This document shows positions 36,279 to 57,012 of a DNA stretch of 64,000 nt, piece after piece. The notes under the pieces were generated by a model. The model ran no database searches. It was not told where the DNA came from and worked only from the letters and a program-made list of their open reading frames with translations. Position numbers and translations under genes: made by a program. This DNA comes from an uncultured delta proteobacterium (GTDB taxonomy: Bacteria > Desulfobacterota > Desulfobacteria > Desulfobacterales > JAFDCJ01). Within the stretch, counting starts at the first letter, position 1; each line of letters starts with the position of its first letter. The stretch spans positions 384,001 to 448,000 of the forward strand of contig CAVYNY010000020.1 of the NCBI GenBank assembly GCA_963769935.1, given 5' to 3'.

Positions 36279-36590
36279 ACAGAGGACAAAAGAAAGGTTT
36301 CAGGTGTCAGAGAGGAAAAGGCCTTAGGGCATAGAGCATAGCGTAGAGAGAGGACAGAAAACAGAGATCAAAGGAAAGAGGGTAAGACGGCCGGGAAGGT
36401 GGGGAAGAAATCCGCAATCCGTACTCATATTACCATTTACCTTTACCTTTAGCCTTTAACCTTTTTCCTTTTGCCTATCAACCATGAACTATCAACTCAA
36501 TCAATTCAATCAACTGAACGATCCAAATTTATCCCGTTAAACCTTTTTGTTTTTTGTTTAACCGGGACGATCTGAACGAACTTAACCATC
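36279..36590. repeat. Family A element, copy 3, between nrdD and nrdG
   Basis: Hairpin core at 36518-36572 near-identical to copies 1 and 2. Confidence 0.85.
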
Positions 36591-36606
36591 AAACATAATT
36601 CAAAAT

Positions 36607-37305
36607 ATGCAAATCGGCGGTCTCCAAAAAAATTCTTTGATTGATTACCCGGGCAAGTTAAGTTCCGTCATCTTTTGTGCGGGCTGCAACTTCGACTGCC
36701 CGTATTGCCATAATCCGGATTTGGTCAGGGGGCCGTCGAAGTGTTCAAATCAACTGAATAGCGGAATGGTTTGTGGTTTTCTCGATCAGCGCCGGGGGTT
36801 TCTGGATGGCGTCGTCATCTCCGGCGGCGAACCCACCTTGCAGCCCGATCTGGCGGATCTTTGCCGAAAAATTAAAGATCTTGGATTCCCTCTGAAACTG
36901 GATACCAACGGAAGCCGTCCGCGGGTGCTCAAGGGTCTGATCGATAAAGGGCTGGTGGACTACATCGCCATGGATCTCAAAACCGATCCCGTGTTGTACC
37001 GAACTTTTATCAAGCCGGACTGCCGGTCGGATCCCATTGTTGCCAGTGTCGAGCTGATCATGAAATCCGGGATTGACTATGAATTCAGAACTACCTGCGT
37101 CAAACCGATTGTAACCCGGCGGACGATTGAAAATATTCTGCAATTGATTCAGGGAGCCGGGCTTTACGTCCTGCAGCGCTTCCGCAACAGCGAAGTGCTG
37201 CATCCCGAGTTTTTTCAGTCCGGCGATTGTGAATGCGGCCCTGAGGCTTTATCGAAATTCAAGGCGCTTGCCGACCACTGGGTCGATGAATGCATCATCC
37301 GATAA
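36607..37305 (+). CDS. nrdG: Anaerobic RNR activating radical SAM enzyme
   Basis: GCNFDCPYCHN, SGGEPT and DTNG; adjacent to nrdD. Confidence 0.93.
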   Translation: MQIGGLQKNSLIDYPGKLSSVIFCAGCNFDCPYCHNPDLVRGPSKCSNQLNSGMVCGFLDQRRGFLDGVVISGGEPTLQPDLADLCRKIKDLGFPLKLDTNGSRPRVLKGLIDKGLVDYIAMDLKTDPVLYRTFIKPDCRSDPIVASVELIMKSGIDYEFRTTCVKPIVTRRTIENILQLIQGAGLYVLQRFRNSEVLHPEFFQSGDCECGPEALSKFKALADHWVDECIIR

Positions 37306-39594: not shown

Positions 39595-41334
39595 ATGGCT
39601 GCAACGAATTGGCCCACATCCAACTGGCCGGAAGGCGTTCCCCAGGATGTAACCGATTACGATAAACCGCTGTTTTCTGTTCTGGATGACGCCGCCGGGG
39701 ATTATCCCAACCAGGTTTACACGATATTTAATGACGCCGCCCGAACGTACGCCCAGGTAAAGGATACGGCTGACCGCGTGGCAAGCTTCCTGGCTGCGCG
39801 CGGAATTCAAAAGGGCGACCGGGTCGCTGTTTTTTTGCCGAATCTACCCCATTACCCGGCTATTTTTTTCGGTATTCTCAAAGCCGGTGCGATTTGTGTG
39901 ACCTGCAATCCTTTATATAAATCCAATGAACTCAATTATCAGCTGAAAGATTCCGGCGTCAAAGCCGTCTTTTGCATGGATCATCCCCAATTTTATCCCA
40001 CGACGGTTGCCGCTATCAGGGGAACCACCGTCGAGACCGTGGTTGTTTGCGGCGTTAAATCCTACCTGCCGTTTCTCAAGGGATTCCTGGGCGGACTGCT
40101 GGGCAAAATTCCCAGGGCTGAGAAGTACGAACCCGGCCATCTGTTTTTTGATGATGTTGTGGCCGCTGCTACACTGCCGCCGCCTCCCGTCGACATAAAT
40201 CCAGCCGAAGATCCGGCGCTTATCATTTATACCGGCGGTACCACGGGAGTCCCCAAAGGGGCGGTTCTAACGCACAGCAATTTTGTCTATGATTTGACGG
40301 CCGCCAACGAGTGGATTCGCCTGGTCCATGAACCCGGCGCCAAGGCGGAAAAAGTTCGCCAGGGAGGATATCACACTTATCTCGGTGTTTTGCCCTGGTA
40401 CCATAGTTTCGGCATGACCTGTGCCCTGCTTTCCGCCTGTTCATCCGGCAGCAGGCTGATCTGCGTGCCGGACCCCCGGGCCGGGAATCCGCCGTTCACC
40501 GAAGTTTTAAAAATTGTCCAGAAACATCGTCCGACCGTTATGCCTGCCGTACCCACGATCTTCGTGGCTTTTACAAATCACGCCCATCTCGACCAGTACG
40601 ATCTGAGTTCGCTCATGGGGTGTTTTTCCGGTGGCGCACCTCTGCCGCCTGAAGTCTGCCGCCAGTTTGAAGAAAAAACCGGGGCGGTTATTTTTGAGGG
40701 CTATGGGTTGAGTGAAACCGCACCGATTGCCACAGTCAACCCGACGAATCCGGATCAGCGCAAGATCGGCACCATCGGTTTTCCGATACCCGGCACGGAC
40801 ATCAAGATACTGGACCTTGATACCGGGACCTCGGAACTGCCCCAAGGCGAAGACGGCGAGATTGCCATCTGCGGACCGCAAGTTATGCAAGGCTACTGGA
40901 ACAAGCCGGAAGAAAATGAAAAAGTATTTCGGGAGATTGGCGGGAGACGTTATTTCCTGACCGGTGATATCGGCCATATCGATGAAGACGGATACATCCT
41001 CATCACCGATCGTAAAAAGGACATGGTGCTGGTCGGCGGGTTCAATGTTTATCCGCGGGATGTGGAAGATATTCTTTTCCAACACCCCAAAGTGGGCCTG
41101 GCTGCCGTGGTCGGCGTGCCGAATGCCAAGAGCGGAGAAGTTGTTAAAGCATACATTCAGCTCAAACCGGGCGAAACTGCCAGCGAGCAGGAAATTCTTG
41201 AGTTCTGCAAGGAGAACATGGCCGGATACAAGCGTCCCAAAATCATCGAGTTCAGAAATGAATTGCCGATTTCAAATGTCGGCAAAATCCTGCGCCGGGT
41301 ATTAAGGGACGAGGAGCGTGGTAAAGCCAAATGA
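39595..41334 (+). CDS. Long-chain fatty acid-CoA ligase (FadD-like)
   Basis: YTGGTTGVPKG, EGYGLSET, TGDIG, DRKKD and GKILRR. Confidence 0.93.
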   Translation: MAATNWPTSNWPEGVPQDVTDYDKPLFSVLDDAAGDYPNQVYTIFNDAARTYAQVKDTADRVASFLAARGIQKGDRVAVFLPNLPHYPAIFFGILKAGAICVTCNPLYKSNELNYQLKDSGVKAVFCMDHPQFYPTTVAAIRGTTVETVVVCGVKSYLPFLKGFLGGLLGKIPRAEKYEPGHLFFDDVVAAATLPPPPVDINPAEDPALIIYTGGTTGVPKGAVLTHSNFVYDLTAANEWIRLVHEPGAKAEKVRQGGYHTYLGVLPWYHSFGMTCALLSACSSGSRLICVPDPRAGNPPFTEVLKIVQKHRPTVMPAVPTIFVAFTNHAHLDQYDLSSLMGCFSGGAPLPPEVCRQFEEKTGAVIFEGYGLSETAPIATVNPTNPDQRKIGTIGFPIPGTDIKILDLDTGTSELPQGEDGEIAICGPQVMQGYWNKPEENEKVFREIGGRRYFLTGDIGHIDEDGYILITDRKKDMVLVGGFNVYPRDVEDILFQHPKVGLAAVVGVPNAKSGEVVKAYIQLKPGETASEQEILEFCKENMAGYKRPKIIEFRNELPISNVGKILRRVLRDEERGKAK

Positions 41335-41966: not shown

Positions 41967-42014
41967 TTGACATCCGTTTTTAGAACAGATAACCTTTATC
42001 CATCAACTGATGGA
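41967..42014 (+). promoter_or_regulatory. sigma70 promoter and TetR operator
   Basis: TTGACA-N17-TAACCT followed by perfect palindrome TCCATCA-AC-TGATGGA (41999-42014). Confidence 0.75.
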
Positions 42015-42073: not shown

Positions 42074-42703
42074 ATGCCTTCCCGTCTTGAAAGGGCCCGC
42101 AATGATCCCACTTCAATGAAAGCCCGAATCCTCGCATCTGCCCGCCGGATATTCGGCGAATACGGCTACAACGATACCACGACCCGGATGATCGCCAAGG
42201 ATGTGGGAATCGACATTTCAACCCTCTATTATCACTGGGGCGAAAAACAGGATCTATATGAAGCGGTCATCATGGACATCAGCGAGGAGGTCCAGCAAAA
42301 ATTAAACGAAGTGGAAAAGCACGTCAGCGGCCTGTCGCTGACTAGCCGTCTTGAAATCGCGATCGATATGATGTGTGATTACCTGTTTTCCCATCCGGAG
42401 GTCTCAAATCTGATCCTTTTCGGATATTTCAACAAAACCCGCCACGGCGTCACCCTTGATATCAGAATGTCGAAATATGTGTCCAACATCGCTTTTGCAA
42501 TGGGCCTTTCAACGGATAAGGCGAATGTTTCAATCCAGGCTAAAGCCCGAATTCTGGCGGTTTGGAACACGGTCCTGAATTTCATCTCCGGTGAAAATTT
42601 TTTCAGGCCCATGCTGGATACCAACCGCGACGACTACATTAAGGTCGTTAAGGAGACGTTAAAATTTATCCTGGTACCGGCGTTTACGTCGAAAAACAAA
42701 TAA
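42074..42703 (+). CDS. TetR family regulator
   Basis: ILASARRIF..GY..TTTRMIAKDVGIDISTLYYHW.EK. Confidence 0.93.
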   Translation: MPSRLERARNDPTSMKARILASARRIFGEYGYNDTTTRMIAKDVGIDISTLYYHWGEKQDLYEAVIMDISEEVQQKLNEVEKHVSGLSLTSRLEIAIDMMCDYLFSHPEVSNLILFGYFNKTRHGVTLDIRMSKYVSNIAFAMGLSTDKANVSIQAKARILAVWNTVLNFISGENFFRPMLDTNRDDYIKVVKETLKFILVPAFTSKNK

Positions 42704-42755
42704 GGGAATTGATGGCGCCACAGTTTTGTCGGGAATTCAAAATGGACAAAATTTA

Positions 42756-42844
42756 ATCACGAAAGCACGAAAGGACGAAAGGACGAAAACACGAAAAGGG
42801 GACAGTATAATTTCGTGCTTTCTATATTTCGTGTTTTCGTGATG
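42756..42844. repeat. Family D inverted repeat
   Basis: ATCACGAAAGCACGAAAGGACGAAAGGACGAAAACACGAAA / TTTCGTGCTTTC..TTTCGTGTTTTCGTGAT. Confidence 0.75.
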
Positions 42845-42907
42845 AAAAAAAATTATTAAAATGTAAAAAAAATAAAAATTAAGACTAAAACAAAGGGAGG
42901 AAGCAAT

Positions 42908-45022
42908 ATGGCGCTCAACCTTGATGCGATCGGCAAAAAGATCGGTCCGTTCACCAAGGAATACTCCTGGAAAGACGTCGTCCTGTATGCGCTTGGCGTC
43001 GGGGCGGGGTTTTCCGACCTGGACTATTGCTATGAAAAAAACCTGAAGGTCATCCCCAGCTTCGGCATTACCACGATGTATGATTTTATGCCCCAGCTGG
43101 CAGCCACCAGCAATGTCAACCTGGCCGGCGTCCTGCACGGTGAGCAGGAACTCATTTTTCACAACCCGATTCCTGCGGAAGGGACGCTGACAACAGAAGG
43201 CAGCATCACGCATTGTTATGACAAAGGCCGGGAAAAAGGCGCTCTAGTGGTGGCCGAGTTTGAAACCTGGCACTCCAACGGCAAGAAATTGTTCACCAGC
43301 GTTGTGACAGTTTTCGCGCGTCTGGACGGCGGCTTCGGCGGTGAAAATGCGCCGGCCAAAGAGGTCGCTTTTCCGGACCGGGAGCCGGATTTCGTGGTTG
43401 AAGGCCAACCCGGTGAGGATCAACCGTTGATATACAGACTTTCCGGCGATGTCTTTCAGCTCCATGTCGACCAGGAGTTTGCCGAAATGTCAGGGTTTGA
43501 AAAGCCCATCATGCATGGGTTGTGCACGCATGGATATGCCTGCCGCGCCTTAATTGACAGCTTCATCCCCGGAGAACCTGAGAAAGCCAGGCGGCTCGAC
43601 TGCCGGTTTAAAAGGCCGCTATATCCCGGAATGCCCATCAAGACGGTCATCTGGAAAACCGCGGAGGGAAAAGCGTTGTGGAAGGTGATCAACGCTGCAA
43701 CCAACGAGGTGGTGATCGACAACGGTATCTTTGAATACGGCGACATTCCCAGGGAAAAAATTCGCTTTGACAACCGGGTGGCGATCGTCACCGGCGCCGG
43801 GGCCGGGCTTGGCCGTATCTATGCTCTGGAACTGGCGAAACGCGGCGCCAAGGTCGTGGTCAACGATCTGGGTGGTGCACGGGACGGCTCCGGCGGCGGC
43901 TCACAGGGACCGGCCGATAAGGTCGTCGATGAAATCAAGGCCTTGGGGGGTGCGGCAGTTCCAAACTACGACAGTGTGGCCACGGTCGAGGGCGGTGAAA
44001 ACATAGTAAAAACCGCCTTGGACGCTTTCGGCACGGTGGACATTGTGATCAACAATGCCGGCATCCTGCGTGACAAAAGCTTTTTGAAGATGGAGCCCGA
44101 AAACTGGCAGATCGTGCTGGATGTGCATTTAAACGGCGCCTACCATGTGTCGCGTCCTGCCTTTGACGTCATGAAGGAGAAGGGCTATGGCCGCATTCTA
44201 ATGACGACCTCGGCGGCCGGTCTATACGGCAATTTCGGTCAGACCAACTACACGGCCGCCAAGATGGGCGTGGTCGGTCTGATGAACACCCTCAAGCTGG
44301 AAGGCGAGAAATACAACATCAGGGTCAATACCATCGCACCGGTGGCCGCCTCGCGTCTGACCGGAGATATTTTGCCGCCGGATTTTTTGGACAAATTGAA
44401 ACCGGAGCTGGTGGCGCCCATGGCATTGTACCTGGTTTCGGAGCAATGCCCGGTGAGCGGCAATATTTACAATGTCGGCATGGGATATATCAACCGGGCC
44501 GCGATTGTCACCGGTCCCGGAGCGGTTGTCGGAAACGGCAAGGAAATTCCCGCGCCGGAGCAGCTTCTGGGACAATGGGAAAAGATAACTTCCCTGAAGA
44601 AGGCCAGAGAATATCGGAATGCTACCGAGCAAATCGGAGATTTGCTGACGACATTTTCACAGCCGGCAGCGGCGGCCGCTGAAGCCGGCCGGGGATTTGC
44701 GGCGGCCGCCGAAGTCTTTGATGCCATGCCGGGGGCCTTTGCGGCCGACGCCGGCGCCGGGGTGGATGTTGTGTTCCAGTTCAATCTTTCCGGTGACAAA
44801 GGCGGCGACTGGTTCAGCGTCATCAAGGGCGGACGCTGCCGGGTGGAGGCCGGCACCCATGAAAAACCGGGCTGTACCCTGAAAATGGCGGCTGCGGATT
44901 TTATTGATCTGATGAACGGTAAACTGCCGGCCATGCAGGCCTACACCTCGGGCAAACTAAAAATCGAGGGCGACATCATGAAGTCGCAGCTGATAGAGAA
45001 ACTTTTTAAATTTAGCTTTTGA
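42908..45022 (+). CDS. Fusion: enoyl-CoA hydratase 2 (double MaoC) + (3R)-hydroxyacyl-CoA dehydrogenase SDR + SCP2
   Basis: LYALGVG, LHGEQ, YRLSGDVFQLHVD..PIMHGLCT; TGAGAGLG, NNAGILRD, NYTAAK; C-terminal GKLKIEGD. Confidence 0.9.
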   Translation: MALNLDAIGKKIGPFTKEYSWKDVVLYALGVGAGFSDLDYCYEKNLKVIPSFGITTMYDFMPQLAATSNVNLAGVLHGEQELIFHNPIPAEGTLTTEGSITHCYDKGREKGALVVAEFETWHSNGKKLFTSVVTVFARLDGGFGGENAPAKEVAFPDREPDFVVEGQPGEDQPLIYRLSGDVFQLHVDQEFAEMSGFEKPIMHGLCTHGYACRALIDSFIPGEPEKARRLDCRFKRPLYPGMPIKTVIWKTAEGKALWKVINAATNEVVIDNGIFEYGDIPREKIRFDNRVAIVTGAGAGLGRIYALELAKRGAKVVVNDLGGARDGSGGGSQGPADKVVDEIKALGGAAVPNYDSVATVEGGENIVKTALDAFGTVDIVINNAGILRDKSFLKMEPENWQIVLDVHLNGAYHVSRPAFDVMKEKGYGRILMTTSAAGLYGNFGQTNYTAAKMGVVGLMNTLKLEGEKYNIRVNTIAPVAASRLTGDILPPDFLDKLKPELVAPMALYLVSEQCPVSGNIYNVGMGYINRAAIVTGPGAVVGNGKEIPAPEQLLGQWEKITSLKKAREYRNATEQIGDLLTTFSQPAAAAAEAGRGFAAAAEVFDAMPGAFAADAGAGVDVVFQFNLSGDKGGDWFSVIKGGRCRVEAGTHEKPGCTLKMAAADFIDLMNGKLPAMQAYTSGKLKIEGDIMKSQLIEKLFKFSF

Positions 45023-45095
45023 ATTGGGATTGCCGGATGAATTAATTTCAATCCGCATTCCGAAATCCGACAATCGAGTAAAGGAGAAAATAACG

Positions 45096-47825
45096 ATGAT
45101 CGGCATTACTTCATACGGCGCATATATTCCACGGTTGAGATTGGACCGGATGGCAATCTTTCAGGCCATGGGCTGGTTTGCACCGGCGATTATGATGGTG
45201 GCCCAGGGCGAGCGATCCATGTGCAACTGGGATGAAGATGCAATTACCATGGCGGTGGCGGCCTCGCGTGACTGCCTGAAGGGGATGGACAAAACGAACC
45301 TGGATGCCCTGTATCTGGCCTCCACCACCCTGCCGTTTGCCGACCGGCAAAATGCCGGAATTGTGTCGGCGGCGCTGAATCTCCGCGAAGAATTTGTCAC
45401 GGCGGATTTTACCGCTTCCCAGAAGGCTGCGACCACGGCGCTGATCACGGCCTTTGAATCCGTCTTAAGCGGTGAGAAGCATAATATCCTGGTGACGGCC
45501 AGTGACCGGCGCGAAACGAAAACCGCCTATTTTTATGAAATGTGGTTCGGCGACGGTGCGGCTGCGCTGATGGTGGGCGATACCGACGTAATTGCCGAGT
45601 ACAAGGGTTCCTACTCGCTGTCCGCTGATTTTGTCGACCACTATCGGGGGGCCGGCCAAAAATACGACTATGTCTGGGAAGAGCGCTGGACCAGGGATGC
45701 GGGTTACGGTACCTTCATTCCCCGGGTAGTCAAGGGTCTTTTTGACAAACTGGGGATTACCATGGATGACGTCGACAAACTGGCGTTTCCCTGCTTTTTC
45801 AAAGGCGACCATGTTAAAATTGCCCGCGGGCTCGGGGCCGGGCCCGACAAACTGGTGGACAACATGCATGAAGTCTGCGGTGAAACCGGTGCGGCGCACT
45901 CCTTTATGATGTTTATTGCAGCCCTGGAACAGGCCAGACCCGGGGACCGGATTCTGATGTGCGGATTCGGGCAGGGGGCCAACGCGGTGTATTTTGAGGT
46001 TACCGAAAATATTGCCCGGCTACCCGGGCGCAATGGCGTTGCCGGAGCTTTGGCCAACAAGAAATCCATCGCCAACTACCACAAATGGCTGAAATTCAGG
46101 GATTTGATAAAAACCGAAATGGGAATCCGGGCCGAAGCGCCCACCCAAACGGCCACCACGGTCCTGTGGCGCAAAAATAAGATGATTTTGGGACTGGTGG
46201 GCGGCAAATGCCGCGAATGCGGCACCCCCCAGTTTCCGAAATCCGATATCTGCGTCAATCCCGGCTGCGGCGCTTTCTACAGCCAGGATGACTATGAATT
46301 CGCCGATGTTCCGGCCAAAGTCAAGACCTTTACCGGCGATATGCTGGCCGTCTCGGTGGATCCACCTGCGATTTACGGCATGGTGCAGTTTGAAGGCGGC
46401 GGCCGCCTGATGGCGGATTTTAGCGACTGCGAACTGGACGACATTAAAGTCGGGCTGCCGGTCAATATGGTATTCAAATGCAAGGGCGTCGACAAGGAGC
46501 GCGGGTTTGTCAACTATTTCTGGAAAGCGGTGCCGGTGCCCGGTGCGGCCGCCGAGGCGGATAAAATCCGCTTTGATGACCGGGTGGCGATTGTCACCGG
46601 CGCCGGCGCAGGACTCGGCCGTGTTTATGCCCTTGAACTGGCGCAGCGCGGAGCCAAAGTTGTCGTCAACGACCTGGGCGGCGCCCGTGACGGCAGCGGC
46701 CAAGGCTCTGCTTCTCCGGCCGATCAGGTGGTGGCGGAAATCAAACAGCGCGGGGGTGAGGCGGTGGCCAATTACGATAATGTGGCCACCCCCCGGGGCG
46801 GTGAAAATATCGTTAAAACCGCCCTGGACGCCTTCGGCCGGTTGGACATCCTGATCAACAACGCCGGTATCCTGCGGGACAAGAGTTTTTCAAAGATGGT
46901 GCCTGAAAACTGGCATGCGGTTATTAACGTCCATTTAAACGGCGCCTTCAACGTAACGCGCCCGGCCATGGCGGCTATGAAGGAAAACGGGTACGGACGC
47001 ATTGTCATGACCACTTCGGCGGCCGGCCTTTACGGCAATTTCGGACAGACCAACTATTCGGCGGCGAAAATGGCCGTGGTCGGACTGATGAACACCTTGA
47101 AGCTGGAAGGTAAAAAATACAACATCAAAGTCAATACCGTCGCTCCCATCGCGGCCTCCAGACTTACCGAAGATGTAATGCCGCCGGATTTATTTGAAAA
47201 GTCCAAACCGGAATTCGTCTCCCCCATGGTATTGTATCTTTGCAGTGAGCGCTGCCGCGAAACCGGCGCGATTTTCAACAGCGGCATGGGTTATTTTAAC
47301 CGGACGGCGGTATTCACCGGGCCAGCAACCCAGCTGGGTGATCTTGAAAATCCGCCCACTCCCGAGCGAATTCACGAGAACTGGAAAAAGATCAATTCCC
47401 TGGAAGGCGCCCGGGAAATGGAAGATGCCAATGCGGCCATCCTGGCGCTCATCATGCCCCCGGACGAAAAAGCAGACCAAGCAGCGGAATCAGCCGACGC
47501 CGGCGGCAGTGTCCAGGCAATTTTCAAAGGCATGGCCGCAAGCTTCAAAGTGGAAGCCGCCGCCGGGATTGACGTGGTGTTCCAGTTCAATATCTCGGGC
47601 GAAGGCGGCGGCGACTGGTTTTGTGTGATCAAAGACGGCAGCTGCAGAATTGAGGTGGGGGCCCACGAAAAGCCGGCCTGTACGATCAATATGGCAGCCG
47701 GGGATTTTCTGGCCATGATGGGCGGCAAGCTGCCGGCCATGCAGGCGTTTACCTCCGGCAAGCTTAAGATCGAAGGGGATGTGATGAAGAGCCAGCTGCT
47801 GGAGAAGTTGTTTAAGATAGGTTAG
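45096..47825 (+). CDS. Fusion: HMG-CoA-synthase-like + DUF35 (Zn-ribbon/OB) + SDR + SCP2
   Basis: GITSYGAYIPRLRL, DEDAITMA, GDGAAA, CGETGAA; CREC..C..PGC and OB fold; TGAGAGLG, NYSAAK; GKLKIEGD. Confidence 0.88.
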   Translation: MIGITSYGAYIPRLRLDRMAIFQAMGWFAPAIMMVAQGERSMCNWDEDAITMAVAASRDCLKGMDKTNLDALYLASTTLPFADRQNAGIVSAALNLREEFVTADFTASQKAATTALITAFESVLSGEKHNILVTASDRRETKTAYFYEMWFGDGAAALMVGDTDVIAEYKGSYSLSADFVDHYRGAGQKYDYVWEERWTRDAGYGTFIPRVVKGLFDKLGITMDDVDKLAFPCFFKGDHVKIARGLGAGPDKLVDNMHEVCGETGAAHSFMMFIAALEQARPGDRILMCGFGQGANAVYFEVTENIARLPGRNGVAGALANKKSIANYHKWLKFRDLIKTEMGIRAEAPTQTATTVLWRKNKMILGLVGGKCRECGTPQFPKSDICVNPGCGAFYSQDDYEFADVPAKVKTFTGDMLAVSVDPPAIYGMVQFEGGGRLMADFSDCELDDIKVGLPVNMVFKCKGVDKERGFVNYFWKAVPVPGAAAEADKIRFDDRVAIVTGAGAGLGRVYALELAQRGAKVVVNDLGGARDGSGQGSASPADQVVAEIKQRGGEAVANYDNVATPRGGENIVKTALDAFGRLDILINNAGILRDKSFSKMVPENWHAVINVHLNGAFNVTRPAMAAMKENGYGRIVMTTSAAGLYGNFGQTNYSAAKMAVVGLMNTLKLEGKKYNIKVNTVAPIAASRLTEDVMPPDLFEKSKPEFVSPMVLYLCSERCRETGAIFNSGMGYFNRTAVFTGPATQLGDLENPPTPERIHENWKKINSLEGAREMEDANAAILALIMPPDEKADQAAESADAGGSVQAIFKGMAASFKVEAAAGIDVVFQFNISGEGGGDWFCVIKDGSCRIEVGAHEKPACTINMAAGDFLAMMGGKLPAMQAFTSGKLKIEGDVMKSQLLEKLFKIG

Positions 47826-47829
47826 AAAA

Positions 47830-47955
47830 AGGTTTAGAGGTTTGGGGCTTCGTCCTTCGGACTACGACCCCACACGCAGGGTTCAACGGTTCTGGGTTCA
47901 GAGGTTAATGGAAAAATCCCAACCCAGAACGGTGAACCTTGAACCTGTGAACGCA
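47830..47955. repeat. GGTTCAG/TGAACC heptad inverted repeat with nested short REP
   Basis: GGCTTCGTCCTTCGGACTACGACCCCACACGCAG inside a GGTTC.. run; TGAACCTTGAACC opposite arm. Confidence 0.65.
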
Positions 47956-48012
47956 TACAGTTAACCTTTTAACAAAAAAATTATTTTATATAATTTTTCC
48001 GGAGGAAAAATT

Positions 48013-49215
48013 ATGGCCACAGGAATAAAAGACAAGGTTGCAATTATTGGTATGGGCTGCACCCGCTTCGGCGAGCGCTGGGATGTGGGCGCCGAAGAAC
48101 TAATGGTGGAAGCCTTCAAGGAGTGCATCGAGGATGCCGGCATCGAAAAGAAGGAAATCGGGGCCGCCTGGCTGGGGACCTGTTTTGACAGCATCAATGT
48201 CGGGCGCAGTGCGCTGCCCCTGTCATTGACGCTGCGGCTGCCGAATATACCGGTAACCCGGGTTGAAAATTTTTGTGCCACCGGCACCGAAGCTTTTCGG
48301 GGCGCCTGCTATGCAGTTGCCTCCGGCGCCTATGACATCGCTCTGGCTATGGGAGTTGAAAAACTAAAAGACACCGGTTACGGCGGTCTGCCCAGCTTCG
48401 TGGGCTCCGACTCGGGCAGCCTGAACTGGCAATGGTTTCCGAACATGACGGCGCCCGGTGCCTTTGCCCAGCTGGCCAGTGCTTACGCCGCCAAATATAA
48501 GATTTCCGATCAGGATTTAAAGCGGGCCATGGCGCATGTGTCGGCCAAGAGCCATGCCAACGGTGTCCTGAATCCCAAAGCCCATTTACGCAAAGCCGTG
48601 ACCGAGGATCAGATTATGGCGGCTCCCATTATCGCTCACCCCCTGGGATTGTTCGATTGCTGCGGTGTCAGCGACGGTGCGGCCTGCGCCATCGTGACTA
48701 CGCCGGAAAAAGCCAAAGCGCTTGGCAAAAAGGATTTTATCAGCGTCAAGGCGCTCCAGCTGGCCTTGAGCTCCGGCGAGGAGATGGGATACAACGATTG
48801 GGATGGCGATCATTTCGTCACCACCAGCAAATGCAGCGTTCAAGCCTACAAGGAAGCCGGGATTGCCGATCCCAAAGAAGAGATCAGCATGATGGAGGTG
48901 CACGATTGTTTTTCCATCACGGAGCTGGTCACCATGGAGGATCTTCATATCTCCGAAAGGGGACAGGCGTATAAGGATGTCATGGACGGCATGTTCGACC
49001 GCAACGGCAAGACCCCATGCCAGGTGGACGGCGGCTTAAAGTGTTTCGGCCATCCCATCGGGGCATCGGGCTTGCGAATGCTGTACGAAATGTATTTGCA
49101 ATTTTACGGCCTGGCCGGGGCGCGCCAGATCGAAGATCCCAGATTCGGACTCACCCATAACCTGGGCGGCTTTCCGGCCATGAATGTTTGCAGCATCTCG
49201 ATCGTCGGCAAATAA
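48013..49215 (+). CDS. SCPx-type thiolase
   Basis: ENFCATG nucleophile, SDGAAC, EVHDCF, GHPIGASG and HNLGG. Confidence 0.92.
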   Translation: MATGIKDKVAIIGMGCTRFGERWDVGAEELMVEAFKECIEDAGIEKKEIGAAWLGTCFDSINVGRSALPLSLTLRLPNIPVTRVENFCATGTEAFRGACYAVASGAYDIALAMGVEKLKDTGYGGLPSFVGSDSGSLNWQWFPNMTAPGAFAQLASAYAAKYKISDQDLKRAMAHVSAKSHANGVLNPKAHLRKAVTEDQIMAAPIIAHPLGLFDCCGVSDGAACAIVTTPEKAKALGKKDFISVKALQLALSSGEEMGYNDWDGDHFVTTSKCSVQAYKEAGIADPKEEISMMEVHDCFSITELVTMEDLHISERGQAYKDVMDGMFDRNGKTPCQVDGGLKCFGHPIGASGLRMLYEMYLQFYGLAGARQIEDPRFGLTHNLGGFPAMNVCSISIVGK

Positions 49216-49450
49216 GGCGAATCGATAGGCATTCGGCGAAGGTGCTCGCGGAGCGTCCCTGCGGGCTTGAGAGCTCAGGCTGAAAAAGCTCACAGCTAGC
49301 TCAAGAAAAGCAATCCACAGACTATCAGCCATCAGCGATGAGCTATCACTGGTTCCTTCTACCTAAGCGCAGCGTTCGCGTGAAACGCTCATCGAGCGAG
49401 CGCTCCTTCAGCGCAGTTCTTACGGTAAAGTATGTAATAAAACGAATTCA

Positions 49451-50593
49451 ATGGAAATACTCAGCTATACCGAGGAGCATAACTTTTTTCGTGAACGGCT
49501 GCGGTCCTTTTTAGCCGAAGAGGTGGCGCCTTTTGCCGACCGGTGGGAAGAAGAAAAGATCATACCCAAAAGTGTCTGGCAAAAAATGGGCCGGGGCGGA
49601 TTCTTGTGCACCGATGTTGCACCGGAATACGGCGGCCTGGGAGGTGATTTCTTATATTCCCTGATTGTGGCCGAGGAGATGACCAGAACCCGGCAAACCG
49701 GATTGGCAACTCCGCTGCACAGCGACATCGTCGTTCCCTATATCAGCGCTTTCGGTTCGGAAGAATTGAAGCATAAATATCTGCCCGGATGTGTCTCCGG
49801 TGACATCGTTACGGCGGTGGCCATGACGGAGCCCGGTGCCGGCAGCGATCTGGCAGGAATAACCACGGCCGCAGTGGAGGAGGGGGCTGAAGTCGTGTTG
49901 AACGGTTCCAAAACGTTTATTTCAAACGGACTCAACGCGGATCTGGTTGTGGTGGCCGCCAGGGATCCGGACGTGGAAAACCCATATGAAGCCTTGTCTT
50001 TGTACCTGGTTGAATCCGGGACCCCCGGTTTTACGCGTGGGCGTCACCTCGAAAAAATGGGTATGTGGAGCCAGGATACGGCCGAGCTTTTTTTCTCTAA
50101 ATGCCGCATCCCCAGAGAAAATCGTCTCGGTGAAAAGGGGATGGGGTTTTTGATGCTGATGGATAAGCTTCAGCAGGAACGGCTGATGTGCGCCATCATG
50201 GCGGTTGCCGGTGCTGAGTTTATTCTGGAGTGGATTACGGATTACTGCAAGCAGACTTCTATTTCGGGCAAGCCCCTTTCCAAATCCCAGGCAGTGCAGT
50301 TTGCGCTGGTGGAAATGACCACGGATGTGAAGCTTGGCCGAACATTTGTTGAAAAACTGATCGCCGATCACATGGAGAAAATGGCAATCATCGTTGAAAC
50401 TTCCATGGCCAAATATTGGACGACGGAGATGCTGAACCGGCTTGCCAACCGTGCCCTCGATCTGTGCGGCGATTTTGCCATGTCGGAAAAATGCCCCATC
50501 GTCAGAGCCTGGCGGGATGCCAGGATCATGACCATCTTTGCCGGGACGAATGAGATTATGAAGAACATTGCGGCCAAGTTTATGGGACTGTGA
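49451..50593 (+). CDS. Acyl-CoA dehydrogenase (LCAD-type)
   Basis: AMTEPGAGSD, NGSKTFISNG, LQQERL and IFAGTNEIMK. Confidence 0.95.
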   Translation: MEILSYTEEHNFFRERLRSFLAEEVAPFADRWEEEKIIPKSVWQKMGRGGFLCTDVAPEYGGLGGDFLYSLIVAEEMTRTRQTGLATPLHSDIVVPYISAFGSEELKHKYLPGCVSGDIVTAVAMTEPGAGSDLAGITTAAVEEGAEVVLNGSKTFISNGLNADLVVVAARDPDVENPYEALSLYLVESGTPGFTRGRHLEKMGMWSQDTAELFFSKCRIPRENRLGEKGMGFLMLMDKLQQERLMCAIMAVAGAEFILEWITDYCKQTSISGKPLSKSQAVQFALVEMTTDVKLGRTFVEKLIADHMEKMAIIVETSMAKYWTTEMLNRLANRALDLCGDFAMSEKCPIVRAWRDARIMTIFAGTNEIMKNIAAKFMGL

Positions 50594-51022
50594 AGACAGA
50601 GGTCGGATGACAGAGGACAGAGAAAAGATGGCAGAGGTCAGAGTCAAGAGTATAGTTGTCGGGTTTCAGCCCGCCCTGGTGCGACATATGGGATTTTTTA
50701 TTTGAGCTGCTGGTGATTCCAATAATGTCTTCCCCTTCAAATTCATACAAGGACAGGTCTGGGCCAGGGGTGTCAGCGAGGAAAAGGCGTTGGAGCAGAG
50801 AGCATAAAGCATAGCGTCGATAGAGAGGACCCGCCGCCGCCCTCCGGGCTATGGCGCGGCAAGCAGAGAACATATTAGAAACTATAGTTATTGGTTATTG
50901 GTTTGCAAATCAACTCAATCAATCAACAACGATCTCAACGATCATAACGATCTCAACCTATCAACTATGAGCTATAAACTATGAGCTATCAACTATGAAC
51001 CATGAACCATGAACTATCAACA
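50594..51022. repeat. Composite periodic repeats related to family A
   Basis: GACAGAG run, GCATAGCG, tandem AACGATCTC 9-mers and AACTATG/AGCTATC heptads. Confidence 0.7.
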
Positions 51023-51098
51023 TTCGGATTTATAGCTGTGGATTCGATCTACTAAAATTTTAAGCAAATGATATTTTGGTGACCCACGAGGGGGCGGA

Positions 51099-52601
51099 AT
51101 GGACAAATACGACGTCGTCGTCATCGGGGCCGGCAATGGCGGGCTTACCGCGGCAGCCAAACTGGCGCAGGCAGGCCTGAATGTTTTGCTGCTGGAGCGG
51201 CACAATATTCCCGGCGGTGCTGCCACAAGTTTTTGCCGCGGGCGGTTTGAGTTCGAGGTGGCCCTGCACCAGCTGAGCGGTCTGGGTACACCGGAAAAGC
51301 CCGGTCTCCTGCGGCTGCAGCTGGATAAGCTCGGGGTGATGGATGATCTCGAATTTGTCGAGATTTCCGATCTCTACCATGTGGCCACGGCCGATGGGTT
51401 TCGCATCACGCTCAAAACGAATCGTGATGAAACCATTGCGGTGCTCAAGGACAAGTTCCCCCATCAAAAAGACGCCATCGGGCGTTATTTTGACTTGATG
51501 GCCCGTTATGCCAACGACATGATCGGCGCCTTCATCTTCAGAGATCCGGAGCCGTCGCGCCAGAAATATCCCAATCTCTACCAATTCGCTCTGCGAAATT
51601 CCAAAGAAATCCTGGATGAATATTTTTCCGATCCGCTGCTAAAAGCCGTGCTTTCAGTGTACTGGGGCTATATCGGTGTGCCGCCGACCCGTCTGGCGTT
51701 TGCTTATCTATGTATGGTTTTATTTCAGTATATGGAGTTTAAACCGTATCATGTAAAAGGCGGTTCCCAGGCATTGTCGAATGCCATTTTGAACAAATTC
51801 GTTTTAAACGGAGGAACCGTGCGCTTCAATTGCGGCGCCCAAAAGATCATCGTCCGGGACGGCCGGATAACAGGGGTGATTACCGATGATGATGACGAGA
51901 TTGCAGCCCAATATGTGGTTTCCAATGTATCGCCGGTCGCCGTCTATACCCATCTTATGGATCGCGAGCAGGTGCCGCAGGATGCGCTGGCCGAAATGAA
52001 AAGCCGCAATCTGAGCACTTCCGCTTTTACCATGTTTATCGGATTTGATTGTGAACCCGATCGGCTGGGCATTCAGGAATCCACCAATTTCCTGATGAGC
52101 TCCACGGATATTTCGGACGGTCTGCTGGACCGGATGAACCGGCTGGACATCACAGATGAGCTTTTAGTGCTCAGCTGCTACGATGTCACCGACCCTGAAT
52201 TTTCCCCTCCCGGAACCTGCCAGGCCAATGTCGTGACGTTAAAATACGGAGAGCCCTGGCTGCGGGTGCCGCCGCGGCAGTATCATGATGTGAAATTCCG
52301 CTGTGCGGACGCCATGCTGAAGCGGATTTACGAAATCTATCCGGAAGCCAAAAACCACATCGAGGAGATCGAAGTCGCAACCCCGCTGACCCACATGCGC
52401 TATCTCGGCCATCCCCTGGGCGCCATATACGGTTATGAAATGCTGACCAAGGATTCCCTTTTTTTCCAGCCGGGCTGCTACTCGCCGATTCAGGGTTTGT
52501 TTTTTGCGGGGGGATGGGCCGGCGACAATGGGTTTGAGCCGACCCTGCGATCGGGGATATCGGCAGCGAAGTCCATTATCAGGCGACGTGGGGCGGGATA
52601 A
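51099..52601 (+). CDS. Phytoene desaturase/retinol saturase-like FAD oxidoreductase
   Basis: IGAGNGGL, ERHNIPGG, KGGSQALS, ATPLT..Y..GAIYG and GLFFAG. Confidence 0.85.
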   Translation: MDKYDVVVIGAGNGGLTAAAKLAQAGLNVLLLERHNIPGGAATSFCRGRFEFEVALHQLSGLGTPEKPGLLRLQLDKLGVMDDLEFVEISDLYHVATADGFRITLKTNRDETIAVLKDKFPHQKDAIGRYFDLMARYANDMIGAFIFRDPEPSRQKYPNLYQFALRNSKEILDEYFSDPLLKAVLSVYWGYIGVPPTRLAFAYLCMVLFQYMEFKPYHVKGGSQALSNAILNKFVLNGGTVRFNCGAQKIIVRDGRITGVITDDDDEIAAQYVVSNVSPVAVYTHLMDREQVPQDALAEMKSRNLSTSAFTMFIGFDCEPDRLGIQESTNFLMSSTDISDGLLDRMNRLDITDELLVLSCYDVTDPEFSPPGTCQANVVTLKYGEPWLRVPPRQYHDVKFRCADAMLKRIYEIYPEAKNHIEEIEVATPLTHMRYLGHPLGAIYGYEMLTKDSLFFQPGCYSPIQGLFFAGGWAGDNGFEPTLRSGISAAKSIIRRRGAG

Positions 52602-52726
52602 GAAGGCTGCTAATATGTTTCCCATCGTAGAAGGTGTCAGGTGTCAGCGCCGCCTGTGGCCCCGTAGCGGCCGGTTTGATCGAAGAAGAAACTGTTTTTA
52701 GTGCCTGTGCCCAGTTTAAAGATGTT

Positions 52727-52798
52727 GTGGGAGCGGTTTTCAACCGTGATCAACTCGGTCGAGCCAGCATCAAAATCGTGGTTGAAAACCACTCCCAC
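52727..52798. repeat. REPIN-like pair of GTGG-type REPs nested in a family B element (about 52633-52900)
   Basis: GTGGGAGCGGTTTTCAACCGTGAT ... ATCGTGGTTGAAAACCACTCCCAC. Confidence 0.75.
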
Positions 52799-52973
52799 CA
52801 GCCATTAACTTTAGCCTAAAAATACCGTCGAATTTAATGATGTCTCATAGGAGGCATCTAAATTTAAAGCAGTTAAACCTGACACCTGAACACTGAAACC
52901 TGATGTAATAGCGGTTTATTGCGATAGCTAGCTCTGAACCCAGCTTTCCGGATAATCCGGCAAAGGAGGTAAC

Positions 52974-54132
52974 ATGCGAAAAGGCATCTGGCAGGAGTTC
53001 GACGGGTACCAGGATATTGTCGAGGAAATCAGGGCAAGCCGGAAGCTGGGCGGAACGGCCGCCGCGGCCGTGGTTGCCGCCGAGGAGTACATCCGGCTGC
53101 TGCATCCCGCGCGCCTGCAGCTGCGGGTCGGCGATATTATTGAGGAAACACCGACCGCCAAAACGCTGCGTCTGATTTCCAAGGACAACTACCTGCCGCC
53201 TTTTCTGGCCGGCCAGTACATTGCCCTTTTTCTTGAAGTCGGCGGCATTCGCACCAGCCGTCCTTACAGCATATCGTCGCCGCCCAATCAGGTCGGATTT
53301 TATGATATTACGATTCGCCGGGTTGAGAACGGACTGGTTTCCAGCTATCTGCTCGACGGAATAAAGCGCGGTGATTCGCTGGTCGGTTCTGGGCCGGCCG
53401 GCAGCTTCTATTTCAATTCCCTCATTCACAAAACGACAATGGTATGCCTTGCCGGCGGCAGCGGAATTACGCCTTTCATGAGTATGATCCGGGAGATCGT
53501 CGAGTGCGGATTGGACCGTAGCGTGTATCTTTTCTACGGCAACAAGACGGCCGATGATATTATTTTCGCCGGCGAACTCAGCCGCATTGCAGAAAGATTC
53601 CAAAATATTCATTACATACCGGTCATCGAGGAGGCGGCCGAAGGCTATGCCGGCGCCTGCGGATTCATCACCCGCGATCTGCTGCGCGAAGCACTGGTTA
53701 ACATTGAAGACAAATCCTTCTTTATCTGCGGACCTCAAGGCCTCTACGATTTTTGTCTGCCCCAGGTGGAAGATCTCGGGGTGCCGAGACGCAAAATAAA
53801 ACAGGAGATGTACGGTGCACCGTCCAGCATCTGGGAGTATCCCGGCTGGCCGGCGGAGATCGGAAAAGAGGATGCCTTTTCGGTAAACGTCAGAAATGGA
53901 AAGCAGCTGAAGGCCAAAGCCGGCGAAACCCTGCTGACGGCCTTGGAGAAAAATGAGGTCCGGGTCCCCTCATTGTGCCGGTCCGGCGAATGCAGCATGT
54001 GCCGGGTGAAGATCCTGTCCGGTAAAGTGTATCAGCCCCCGGGGGTTCCCGTTCGAAAGTCCGACCGGCAGTTCGGCTATGTGCATGCGTGCATGTCTTA
54101 TCCGATCAGCCGATCTTGAAATTTTGATTTAG
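52974..54132 (+). CDS. FNR-type FAD/NAD(P) reductase with C-terminal 2Fe-2S (probable +1 frameshift in the last codons)
   Basis: RPYSISS, AGGSGITP, CGP, CRSGECSMC..HAC; removing one C near 54111 gives the typical ending PISDLEILI* at 54132. Confidence 0.88.
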
Positions 54133-54370
54133 GAAAAAGGTGAAATTAAAAAGGACAAAGGATAAAGGAAAAAGGTGAAAGGTGTAAGGTGCAAGGTGGA
54201 GTTTAGACGGCTGAAAACTATAGATAGAGGCGAAAGGCGAACGGCGCAAGATTCAACCTTGGAGTGAAAGGTGTTTAATCCAATGTCCCGGTCTGTGAAT
54301 TCTTCATGCTCGGTTTGAAATTCAATTACCGTCATACACCTTTAACCTTTTGCCTTTATCCTTATTCCTA
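54133..54370. repeat. AAAGG/CCTTT heptad inverted repeat related to family A
   Basis: AAAGGACAAAGGATAAAGGAAAAAGG ... CCTTTAACCTTTTGCCTTTATCC. Confidence 0.65.
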
Positions 54371-54378
54371 TATACGAG

Positions 54379-55194
54379 GTGTTTATGACTGATGAATTTC
54401 TGGTAGGCGAAAAAAAAGACAATGTTTACACCATCACCCTCAATCGTCCTGAAAAACGCAATGCCGTTAATGTCGCAATGCTGACCGGTATCTGTGAGCT
54501 GGCGGAAAAGCAGGCTGCAGATTCCGACATCCGGACCATCATTGTCAAAGGGGAGGGAAAAATCTTTTCGGCCGGGGTCGATTTTAACTCCCTTGGAGCG
54601 GAAGTGGGCGTATTTTTAGGCGATAAAGGGTCGGGCGGAGCCGGGCTGCGGGCGCTGATCTACAGGTTCCAACAGTATTTCAACCGCCTGGAAGCGGTGG
54701 AAATTCCCATTATCTGCGCCATGCACGGCCGGGCCATGGGGCTTGGCGTCGAACTGGCCTTGGCCTGTGATATTCGTTTGATGAGTGCTGACTGCCTCTG
54801 GGGCATGCCGGAATTGAAACTGGGTGTTATCGCCGACCTGGGCGGAACCTCACGACTCTCCAGACTTCTGGGGCCATCCCGTGCCATGGAAGTATTTATG
54901 ACCGCCGGGGAATACACATCTCAACAGGCTTTGGATTGGGGCCTGGTCAATTACCTGCACCCCCCAAATGATTTAATCGCCCAATCGGAAAAGATGGCGC
55001 AAAATATTGCTGCAACGGCGCCGCTGGCGGCCGGCGCGGTCAAAAGAATCATCAAACACGGGCAGGGCGTCGATCTGATGACCCAGCTCGATATGGAAGC
55101 CAGCCACAACAGTGTCCTGTTGCAGACCGCAGACTTCCAGGAAGGCCTTGCAGCCATGCTGGAAAAACGGGCCGCAAAGTGGAAAAAACGATAG
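54379..55194 (+). CDS. Enoyl-CoA hydratase/isomerase
   Basis: LNRPEKRNA, FSAGVD, GLGVELALACD and MPE. Confidence 0.92.
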   Translation: MFMTDEFLVGEKKDNVYTITLNRPEKRNAVNVAMLTGICELAEKQAADSDIRTIIVKGEGKIFSAGVDFNSLGAEVGVFLGDKGSGGAGLRALIYRFQQYFNRLEAVEIPIICAMHGRAMGLGVELALACDIRLMSADCLWGMPELKLGVIADLGGTSRLSRLLGPSRAMEVFMTAGEYTSQQALDWGLVNYLHPPNDLIAQSEKMAQNIAATAPLAAGAVKRIIKHGQGVDLMTQLDMEASHNSVLLQTADFQEGLAAMLEKRAAKWKKR

Positions 55195-55336: not shown

Positions 55337-56536
55337 TTACCTGGCGGCCGGAGGTTTGACGGCAGGTTCTCGGACCAGGCAAAAAATTTCGTGCAAATAT
55401 ATTCCCCACACACAATATGCGACGAATAATGGATAGTAGGCCCGGATGATGTCATAGATCGAAGCGGCAATGGGCAGCATCAGCCGATCGGACAGGATGA
55501 AAAGAGCAAAAAGAAAGGGAGCGATTTTTGTGCAGCGTATGTTTTTTATTATGTAGTAGCTCGGCACCAGGAGCAGGATATACCCGTAATCTTTAAATCT
55601 GGGATGGATCAGGGCATACACCAGGCCTACCATAAAGACTTCCATCATCGCTCTGTTTTCAATGGCCGGGCGCTTTAACCGAAGGCAGGCTTGGTAGGAA
55701 AAAAAGACCACGGCGGCTGCCAAAATAATGTACATCCCGGCTTCAAAGAAATGCGGAATCCTCATTCCCGAAATTTTGGCCAATGATTCCGCCAGGGCCG
55801 CGATCAGCTTGTTGGTTGAAGGCACCACCCCGCCTTTTTCGCCCAGCACCACCAGGGCGTTTTTTATAAATCCGGTAAACAGCTCCGGCACCAACAAATA
55901 TTGAATAAGCAGGTAGGCGAGAAAGACAGCCCCGGCGCTGAAGAAATATTTAAACCTTCTTTTATCGTCAGAAAGCAGCAGCAAAACCAAGAAGAAAATG
56001 GGTGTCAGCTTAAAACCGGCGGCAATCAGGGTGAAGAGGCAAAAAAGCTTTAATTTGCCCTTAATGTAAAAACTGAAACCAAGCCACAGCAGCGCCTGCT
56101 GCACCAGGTTGATATTGCCGGCGATCATATCCAGGAAAATGGCACTGTTAAAGGCCAGCAGGCAAAAAACATAAAACAGTGGGCCGCCGTCTTTTTTGAG
56201 AAACTCTCTTTGCCAGAAATAAATGAGGCCGATCAGTAAAAGAAATTTTGAAATAAGAAAAATCTGGAAAGCGGTTTTGTATGCGGGAATCGCAAACAGG
56301 CGATAAAAAAACAGGGTGACCGGAGGATAGGTATATAAAAATCTTGTCCGGGCTTTGGGAAACAGATTGTCGGCGTCATAGGGGTTTGAGCCGGATGCCA
56401 GAATTTTGCCCGCTTCACGGTGGGTACGAAAATCCCACAGGTATTGGTCCTGGTGGGCCGAGATATGCAATAGCAGGGTCAGACCATATGCGAGCAGCAG
56501 GGCAATAACCACTATCCCGGCGATCTTTTTGGCCAT
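55337..56536 (-). CDS. GT87/DUF2029-like membrane glycosyltransferase
   Basis: DF..H..G.NPY, YTYPP, GNIN, FKLTP; many TM segments. Confidence 0.7.
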   Translation of the reverse strand: MAKKIAGIVVIALLLAYGLTLLLHISAHQDQYLWDFRTHREAGKILASGSNPYDADNLFPKARTRFLYTYPPVTLFFYRLFAIPAYKTAFQIFLISKFLLLIGLIYFWQREFLKKDGGPLFYVFCLLAFNSAIFLDMIAGNINLVQQALLWLGFSFYIKGKLKLFCLFTLIAAGFKLTPIFFLVLLLLSDDKRRFKYFFSAGAVFLAYLLIQYLLVPELFTGFIKNALVVLGEKGGVVPSTNKLIAALAESLAKISGMRIPHFFEAGMYIILAAAVVFFSYQACLRLKRPAIENRAMMEVFMVGLVYALIHPRFKDYGYILLLVPSYYIIKNIRCTKIAPFLFALFILSDRLMLPIAASIYDIIRAYYPLFVAYCVWGIYLHEIFCLVREPAVKPPAAR

Positions 56537-57012
56537 TTGCTTTTTCCCCTTAAAACTTGCTTGAACCAATGGATTTGAAAATTTTGAAGGTGCTGCCTAT
56601 TGTCAGGGATGTCTTATCTTTAATATTCGAATTTCGTTATCAGCGTCAAGCGCTAAGTCCGCCGATTCAATGGTTTCATTTTGTACATGAAAGCACGATT
56701 TTTTTGACACTCCAACTAAATTGCCGGGTGGCTTGTCGAGAGGCGGGCAAAGGGACTGCGCATGCTTTTCTAAAGGATTGGAACGATGGTATAATAGTGG
56801 TTGAGCGATTTTGAACGGGATGGTATTGTATCACAAAACCGGTGTTCGAACTGCCGGCTGCCGGGACAAAGTTCTGGCCTGATAATTACCAAAACCGCAA
56901 CCGTTCGCGGGTTCAGAGGTTCCGGCGTTGAATTTGCGGGAATTAGTTTTAAGATTGCCTTTAATGGTGAATCCCGAACCGATGAAACCATACTAAAAGG
57001 AGTGATTTGAGA

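Follow-up and report, generated by a model that had tools for sequence, protein, structure and literature searches.

A conserved TetR-headed operon of Desulfobacterales with peroxisome-type parts as a candidate machinery for 2-methyl-branched acyl-CoAs

Introduction

In peroxisomes, 2-methyl-branched acyl-CoAs are processed by AMACR, MFE-2 and SCPx (PMC4729952), and in Mycobacterium tuberculosis a MaoC hydratase and an SDR act on sterol side chains (PMC8204306). A different kind of thiolase module is known from Pseudomonas fluorescens, where the complex of a thiolase with a dead HMGS-like-DUF35 protein carries out thiolysis only (PMC12960953), and a 2010 paper described DUF35 fused to domains of the thiolase-superfamily, SDR, SCP2 and hot-dog types (PMC2954200). 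Here we analyse an operon that brings such parts together in an uncultured member of the Desulfobacterales, an order responsible for a large share of carbon oxidation in the seabed (PMC11887813). It lies in a 64,000-nucleotide stretch of contig CAVYNY010000020.1 (hereafter the window, to which all positions refer), for which an earlier note made from the sequence alone had proposed a TetR-controlled, peroxisome-style beta-oxidation cluster of eight co-oriented genes with a CoA ligase just upstream. We describe the genes, their motifs and synteny, and a DNA motif together with the genes it precedes, and from these we infer activities, binding, assembly and substrate. The operon is a real, conserved and uncharacterised version of known machinery (a literature search covering few subscription journals found no characterisation of it or of its operator), and its five-gene core probably runs a round of beta-oxidation on 2-methyl-branched acyl-CoAs, which would be poorly handled by the ordinary FadB route.

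Results

A five-gene unit is conserved in Desulfobacterales

To define the extent of the operon we examined 301 genomes of the order. The gene encoding the HMG-CoA synthase (HMGS)-like and DUF35 domains is present in 130 of these, and the long fusion that also bears SDR and SCP2 domains was counted in 96 (90 full and 6 partial matches). Synteny was surveyed over 20 kb around the fusions of 60 of the 96 carriers, longer contigs being favoured, and 53 of these loci had full flanks. A TetR-headed operon is indeed conserved, its five core genes each occurring in 43-53 of the 53 loci, and because of these counts we define the conserved unit as tetR, the hydratase 2-SDR-SCP2 gene, the HMGS-DUF35-SDR-SCP2 fusion, the thiolase and the LCAD-type dehydrogenase. 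Across the phylum, the hydratase gene was detected in 23 of 301 genomes. The source names of the homologues are those of Desulfobacterales, the fusion records including Desulfatibacillum, Desulfatitalea, Desulfosalsimonas and an Olavius symbiont. The core features in the window are as follows.

41967..41972, + strand: candidate -35-like hexamer TTGACA, likely operon promoter (from sequence and relatives' head sites)
41999..42014, no strand: palindrome TCCATCA-AC-TGATGGA, candidate TetR operator, overlapping the expected transcription start
42074..42703, + strand: TetR-family regulator, 209 aa (PF00440, TetR_N; 44/53 full-flank loci)
42908..45022, + strand: hydratase 2-SDR-SCP2 protein, 704 aa (PF22622, PF01575, SDR and SCP2; 53/53 loci)
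45096..47825, + strand: fusion of a dead HMGS-like domain, DUF35 Zn-ribbon/OB, SDR and SCP2, 909 aa (HMGS-like/ACP_syn_III, zf-ChsH2, OB_ChsH2_C, SDR and SCP2)
48013..49215, + strand: thiolase of PRK06157 type, 400 aa (696.7 bits, cut-off 403; 52/53 loci)
49451..50593, + strand: LCAD-type acyl-CoA dehydrogenase (43/53 loci)

Domains were called with Pfam and NCBIfam profiles on the window proteins; all eight co-oriented reading frames and the upstream ligase of the earlier note are present and their domains agree with its list. Every core gene is single-copy at high identity in this 8.0-Mb assembly. The most likely start of the four-domain fusion is ATG 45096, which stands behind AAGGAG and gives a protein of the same length as most homologues; it is preferred to the TTG at 45024.

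A palindrome tracks the head of the operon

The palindrome TCCATCA-N2-TGATGGA, which has an AC spacer here, sits 26 bp after the TTGACA hexamer. Scored at a minimum of 12 of the 14 arm positions, it precedes tetR in 44 of 47 loci as against 0 of 47 shuffles, and TTGA or TTGC stands at the matching offset at 42 of 54 head sites of relatives. Nine loci have it ahead of the hydratase gene, and in most of these tetR is missing or divergently oriented; in none of the surveyed loci does it precede the thiolase, LCAD or CrtI-like gene. Altogether 55 of the 60 loci contain the palindrome; of the other five, three are cut off by a contig edge and tetR is missing from two. A strict pattern returned 45 sites in 33 of 41 genomes, compared with one for a reversed control, and in a matrix scan of this genome the head site scored best (24.9, where shuffles reached 21-22). 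A conserved promoter palindrome that follows the operon head in this manner supports control by TetR from the head, with the palindrome as putative operator. A scan for sigma-70 promoters and terminators failed to detect the promoter of tetR and found about as many terminators as in shuffles. In some relatives a metallo-beta-lactamase-fold hydrolase is divergent from tetR and shares the operator region (L277:3112-4008, L282:5279-6181).

A wider regulon was not apparent in this genome, where only the head site is clear and the second-best site, preceding a TRAP permease, is within chance. Other genomes were more informative. A loose pattern gave 412 matches, of which 150 were listed, many with CCAGCA arms and several inside genes; we examined 38 further sites, comprising 22 chosen by eye among the loose-pattern matches listed, 15 from the strict pattern and the second-best site of this genome. 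Operons of the methylmalonyl-CoA pathway lie behind eight of the 38, in three families, the epimerase gene being seen in seven and one operon being cut by a contig end. They take the form of mce-pccB-carboxylase (three sites, genus g6), mce-mcm-meaB-pccB (one site, family f73) and aminotransferase-mce-mcm (three complete and the one cut, family f67). As operons of this pathway stand behind the palindrome in three families, propionyl-CoA disposal appears to be tied to it in those lineages. Behind two sites in genus g6 is a close relative of AMACR (E 1e-119 to the mycobacterial alpha-methylacyl-CoA racemase), and sdhCAB and malate dehydrogenase genes each lie behind three sites in the same genus. 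Further sites precede a pair of acyl-CoA dehydrogenase genes including LCAD (three), tetR (three) and a fragmented FadI/FadJ-like pair (one).

A second link to methyl branches comes from a racemase-like gene, found beside the operon in 24 of the 53 full-flank loci. Its His/Asp pair is kept in all 24 copies, its best solved-structure match is MCR, and a 62% orthologue occurs elsewhere in this genome. The gene was found in 73 of the 96 fusion genomes compared with 62 of the 205 others, a comparison in which related genomes are not independent.

The hydratase and SDRs resemble MFE-2 enzymes, and the acyl-CoA dehydrogenase is of LCAD type

The best solved matches of the hydratase 2-SDR-SCP2 protein are the (3R)-hydroxyacyl-CoA dehydrogenases and hydratases of MFE-2, and the top four PDB matches to its SDR are MFE-2 dehydrogenases. 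The hydratase-2 fold keeps Asp181 and His186, with FQ replacing the usual NP; the same D and H are kept in all eight of the commonest motif variants (32 of 57 loci), most of which alter NP. Both SDRs retain Ser/Tyr/Lys and an NAD-type Asp (VNDLGG) across loci. The acyl-CoA dehydrogenase (E 2e-91 to human LCAD) has Glu243 in LQQERL on the G-helix and Ala at the position of MCAD Glu376, and the LCAD-type Glu is present in 49 of 49 loci. We take the catalytic roles of these hydratase, SDR and LCAD residues to be those usual in their families. Fold, motifs and best solved matches thus agree with the MFE-2-type hydratase and dehydrogenase predicted earlier, in an order (hydratase-SDR-SCP2) that differs from the SDR-hydratase-SCP2 order of MFE-2. 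The SDR-SCP2 half of the HMGS-DUF35 fusion is 67% identical to that of the upstream hydratase gene, and MFE-2 dehydrogenases are dimers; from this likeness we would guess that the two SDRs pair. Elsewhere in this genome a stand-alone MFE-2-type hydratase 2 (L175:8474-10339) adjoins an S-type 3-hydroxyacyl-CoA dehydrogenase, an acyl-CoA dehydrogenase and a ligase, possibly forming an epimerisation module.

A dead HMGS-like-DUF35 protein stands beside an intact thiolase

The HMGS-like domain does not have the catalytic Glu, Cys and His of an active HMG-CoA synthase, their positions being occupied by Thr77 (60/60 copies), Gln109 (54/60, with Cys in none) and Pro232 (60/60), and the four zinc cysteines of DUF35 are kept in 80 of 80 copies. 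A predicted structure of fusion residues 1-485 (predicted local distance difference test score, pLDDT, 88) gave PhlA, archaeal HMGS and MucA as first matches, with root-mean-square deviations of 2.1-2.7 Å from PhlA and archaeal HMGS. The thiolase retains Cys88, HDCF and GHP in 56 of 56 loci, so that the pair has the composition of a PfACAT-type module, in which a dead HMGS-like domain and a four-Cys DUF35 stand beside an intact thiolase. The thiolase motifs are those of the SCP2 clade. Among solved structures the enzyme comes closest to archaeal DUF35-partnered thiolases and BbsB, followed by an SCP2-thiolase (6HRV, E 8e-35), and a profile search found no SCP2 domain on the 400-aa protein; the earlier assignment as SCPx is therefore replaced by the PRK06157, DUF35-partnered type. 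A thiolase gene also adjoins all 20 of the 20 short HMGS-like-DUF35 genes examined. This adjacency, with the homology to PfACAT/HMGS-DUF35, suggests a scaffold role for the dead HMGS-DUF35 part. The HMGS-like domain (fusion region 45096-46550) has a new cysteine, Cys233, immediately behind the position of the missing His. All 60 of the 60 long forms and 19 of the 20 short ones share it, and it may serve the structure or act as a new active residue; Cys261 is also common (56 of 60 long forms).

Variable neighbours and surrounding sequence

The remaining genes of the proposed cluster are accessory.

51099..52601, + strand: CrtI/RetSat-like FAD oxidoreductase (10/53 loci)
52974..54119, + strand: FNR-2Fe2S electron-transfer protein, partner of the CrtI-like gene (8/53 loci)
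54379..55194, + strand: crotonase-family protein (5/53 loci)
39595..41334, + strand: long-chain acyl-CoA ligase-like protein (AMP-binding), with its own promoter-like site, upstream of the operator; a neighbour restricted to some lineages (4/53 loci)

These counts do not bear out eight genes and a ligase as one unit. The gaps between the LCAD, CrtI-like, FNR and crotonase genes measure 505, 372 and 259 bp. Other neighbours in the 53 loci include a second acyl-CoA dehydrogenase (20) and a FabK-like gene (7), and the variable neighbours in general are generic lipid genes: ligases, FabK-like, OYE/FadH-like, alcohol and aldehyde dehydrogenases and a dienoyl-isomerase-like crotonase. The crotonase of the window combines the two glutamates of hydratases with the Asp found in dienoyl-CoA isomerases.

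The CrtI-like gene occurs in 44 of the 301 genomes, 37 of which also carry the fusion, and in 20 of 20 loci it is followed by the FNR-2Fe2S gene, mostly away from the operon. Identity as a carotenoid desaturase or isomerase (CrtI, CrtISO) was rejected, since the protein scores under the carotenoid cut-offs (121.6 versus 238 bits for TIGR02734, 133 versus 587 for TIGR02730) and its constant partner is FNR-2Fe2S. Identity with conjugated-linoleate reductase gained no backing from a literature search and one review, and Atlas matches were generic. The two genes plausibly form a mobile helper module whose products reduce C=C bonds or change their position.

Contigs from a sediment metatranscriptome (four runs of one study) span tetR, both fusions and the thiolase, and two bridge the junction between the hydratase and HMGS-DUF35 genes. 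Such contigs cannot show transcription and a control stretch was likewise covered in 29 of 30 bins, so they were set aside as expression evidence. By far the deepest bin was that of the bacterial large signal recognition particle RNA (10142-10389, - strand; Rfam RF01854). Unrelated neighbours are the anaerobic ribonucleotide reductase genes nrdD/nrdG upstream (34161-37305) and a GT87 glycosyltransferase downstream (55337-56569). The intergenic segments 42752-42847, 52727-52798, 54147-54374 and 50964-51019 contain inverted repeats, long and imperfect, as well as short tandem 'stutter' repeats, which drew only partial matches from the sediment-run contigs, as expected of repeats.

Discussion

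Proposed function of the operon

The earlier note held that the substrate could not be read from the sequence. The other targets of the palindrome, together with the racemase linkage, make the substrate class partly readable: it is most likely 2-methyl-branched and propionyl-CoA-yielding, and the branched substrates that the note had listed gain backing from the epimerase operons and the AMACR relative behind predicted operators. In the proposed round, a racemase encoded beside the operon or elsewhere would set the configuration of the methyl group, after which the LCAD-type enzyme would oxidise the (2S)-methylacyl-CoA, hydratase 2 would add water and the resulting R-type 3-hydroxy intermediate would be oxidised by the NAD-type SDRs. 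With the dead HMGS-DUF35 part as its docking platform, the thiolase would then liberate propionyl-CoA into the methylmalonyl-CoA pathway. The SCP2 domains may hold the hydrophobic chain, and the near-identical SDRs could pair and so link hydratase to thiolase. TetR would repress at the palindrome until an acyl-CoA-type ligand binds, and the CrtI-like/FNR pair and crotonase would be optional helpers, plausibly for double bonds.

In sediment, likely substrates include isoprenoid acids of the pristanate type and fatty acids with 10-methyl or anteiso branches. The palindrome narrows the candidates to 2-methyl-branched acids, for instance 2-methylhexanoate, pristanate and 10-methyl or anteiso fatty acids. 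Degradation of alkanes by fumarate addition gives 2-methylalkanoyl-CoAs, and propionyl-CoA is proposed to return to fumarate via methylmalonyl-CoA (PMC7028053); these 2-methylalkanoyl-CoAs are likely to be among the substrates, and the operon is a candidate for the 2-methylalkanoyl-CoA round proposed in that pathway. Alkane activation in this genome was rejected, as its two glycyl-radical matches are HypD-like and 4-hydroxyphenylacetate decarboxylase. Genomes of genus g6 have 10-11 glycyl-radical enzymes each.

More tentatively, and as a possibility we would not press, about a third of Desulfobacterales genomes may encode a TetR-controlled machinery devoted to 2-methyl-branched acyl-CoAs, a bacterial analogue of the trifunctional enzyme built from peroxisome-type parts with a dead HMGS/DUF35 scaffold and paired SDRs, which would serve as the propionyl-CoA-releasing step when isoprenoid and methyl-branched lipids, and the 2-methylalkanoyl-CoAs of alkane degradation by fumarate addition, are broken down anaerobically. 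Such a function would assign a pathway to part of the approximately 1,000 orphan bacterial HMGS-ACAT-DUF35 loci (PMC12960953).

Several observations weigh against a preference for 2-methyl branches. Of the 38 sites, 22 of them picked by eye among the matches listed, fifteen fall within genes or have unrelated genes behind them, and those of sdh, mdh and AMACR all belong to the single genus g6. In this genome the 500 bp ahead of each of mce, mcm, pccB, sdh, mdh and the racemase-like gene contain no operator-like site, the best matches reaching 8-11 of 14 positions; the methylmalonyl-CoA pathway genes are present without a nearby palindrome, and the wider regulon would therefore be lineage-dependent. 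The racemase-like query had no match in 23 of the 96 carriers, and its family, which shows no more than moderate similarity to MCR (E 5e-60), might instead be one of CoA-transferases. Propionyl-CoA also arises from odd-chain fatty acids and from steroid side chains, the hydratase motif deviates from the usual NP, and in this assembly, where the 800-aa FadB was not found, the operon could serve more widely.

Alternative substrates and directions

The operon might instead provide a second route of general use, taking long, odd-chain or unsaturated fatty acids through R-intermediates with no preference for methyl branches. Its generic lipid neighbours, the propionyl-CoA that odd chains also give and the capacity of MFE-2 for very-long straight chains (PMC4729952) are consistent with this, as is the failure to find FadB in this assembly, which, given that seven of seven congeners have the gene, reflects either an assembly gap or loss. 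We nevertheless think it unlikely, because it leaves unexplained the racemase gene beside the operon or behind the palindrome and because FadB, present in 229 of the 301 genomes, accompanies the fusion in 90 of 96 carriers. The operon is therefore an addition to ordinary beta-oxidation, and a main fatty-acid route mutually exclusive with FadB is ruled out. Myristinate catabolism of D. multivorans has been attributed to FadAB, and the supplementary table has no MaoC or SCP entries (PMC5109826).

Degradation of steroid or bile-acid side chains, after the manner of ChsH3/ChsB1 of M. tuberculosis, had been among the substrates envisaged and found no positive support. SCP2, a MaoC-type hydratase with an SDR, a racemase and propionyl-CoA output would all fit sterol side chains (PMC8204306, PMC4729952), but the steroid-family cut-offs are missed by the ligase (257 versus 750 bits, CasG) and the crotonase (184 versus 400, EchA19), and the thiolase keeps Cys88 and matches Ltp2/Sal-type aldolases weakly. 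The locus thus has neither the aldolase-type thiolase homologue nor the steroid-specific ligase or hydratase of a side-chain cluster, and the recurring annotated neighbours include no ring-degradation gene, no genome-wide search for ring genes having been made; we regard this substrate as quite improbable.

Synthesis or elongation by reverse beta-oxidation, possibly making methyl-branched chains from propionyl-CoA, has a precedent in the biosynthetic Sulfolobus thiolase/DUF35/R-reductase/MaoC complex of the same parts (bioRxiv 2024.07.05.601840) and could draw on the FabK-like gene in 7 of 53 loci and the reversible methylmalonyl-CoA route, but is very improbable given the NADPH-strict Sulfolobus reductase as against two NAD-type SDRs here, a core partner that is an acyl-CoA dehydrogenase and not an enoyl reductase, and the finding that the PfACAT complex made no acetoacetyl-CoA (PMC12960953).

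Comparison with known systems

For oxidation of 2-methyl-branched acyl-CoAs, the closest parallel is the peroxisomal pathway of AMACR, ACOX2, MFE-2 (HSD17B4) and SCPx, with which the operon shares hydratase 2, a 3R-type SDR, SCP2, an SCP2-clade thiolase, a racemase linkage and a propionyl-CoA-yielding logic. It differs in its hydratase-SDR-SCP2 order, a duplicated SDR-SCP2 half, an LCAD-type dehydrogenase instead of an oxidase, and its predicted setting in an anaerobic bacterial operon under TetR; unlike SCPx, its thiolase is without SCP2 and has an HMGS-like/DUF35 partner. ChsH3/ChsB1 of M. tuberculosis likewise pair a bacterial MaoC-like hydratase with an NAD SDR on a bulky acyl-CoA (PMC8204306), although as separate proteins in a cholesterol region, whereas no steroid ring genes were seen alongside the operon. 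The KT/DUF35/ACR/MaoC module of Sulfolobus acidocaldarius (bioRxiv 2024.07.05.601840) also combines thiolase, DUF35, an R-specific SDR and a MaoC hydratase; it uses NADPH for biosynthesis, is made of separate subunits and includes an enoyl reductase, in contrast to the NAD-type SDRs, fused parts and acyl-CoA dehydrogenase of the operon. Finally, the dead HMGS-like-DUF35 fusion beside a thiolase with Cys, HDxF and GHx recalls PfACAT/HMGS-DUF35 (PMC12960953), PhlABC, MucABC and the archaeal thiolase/HMGS/DUF35 complex (6ESQ). PhlC and MucB are acyltransferases that have lost HDxF, whereas the operon thiolase keeps HDCF, and the archaeal HMGS is active where the HMGS-like domain of the operon is predicted to be dead. 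Unlike its counterpart in PfACAT, the fusion described here bears an added SDR and SCP2 and stands within a full beta-oxidation operon.

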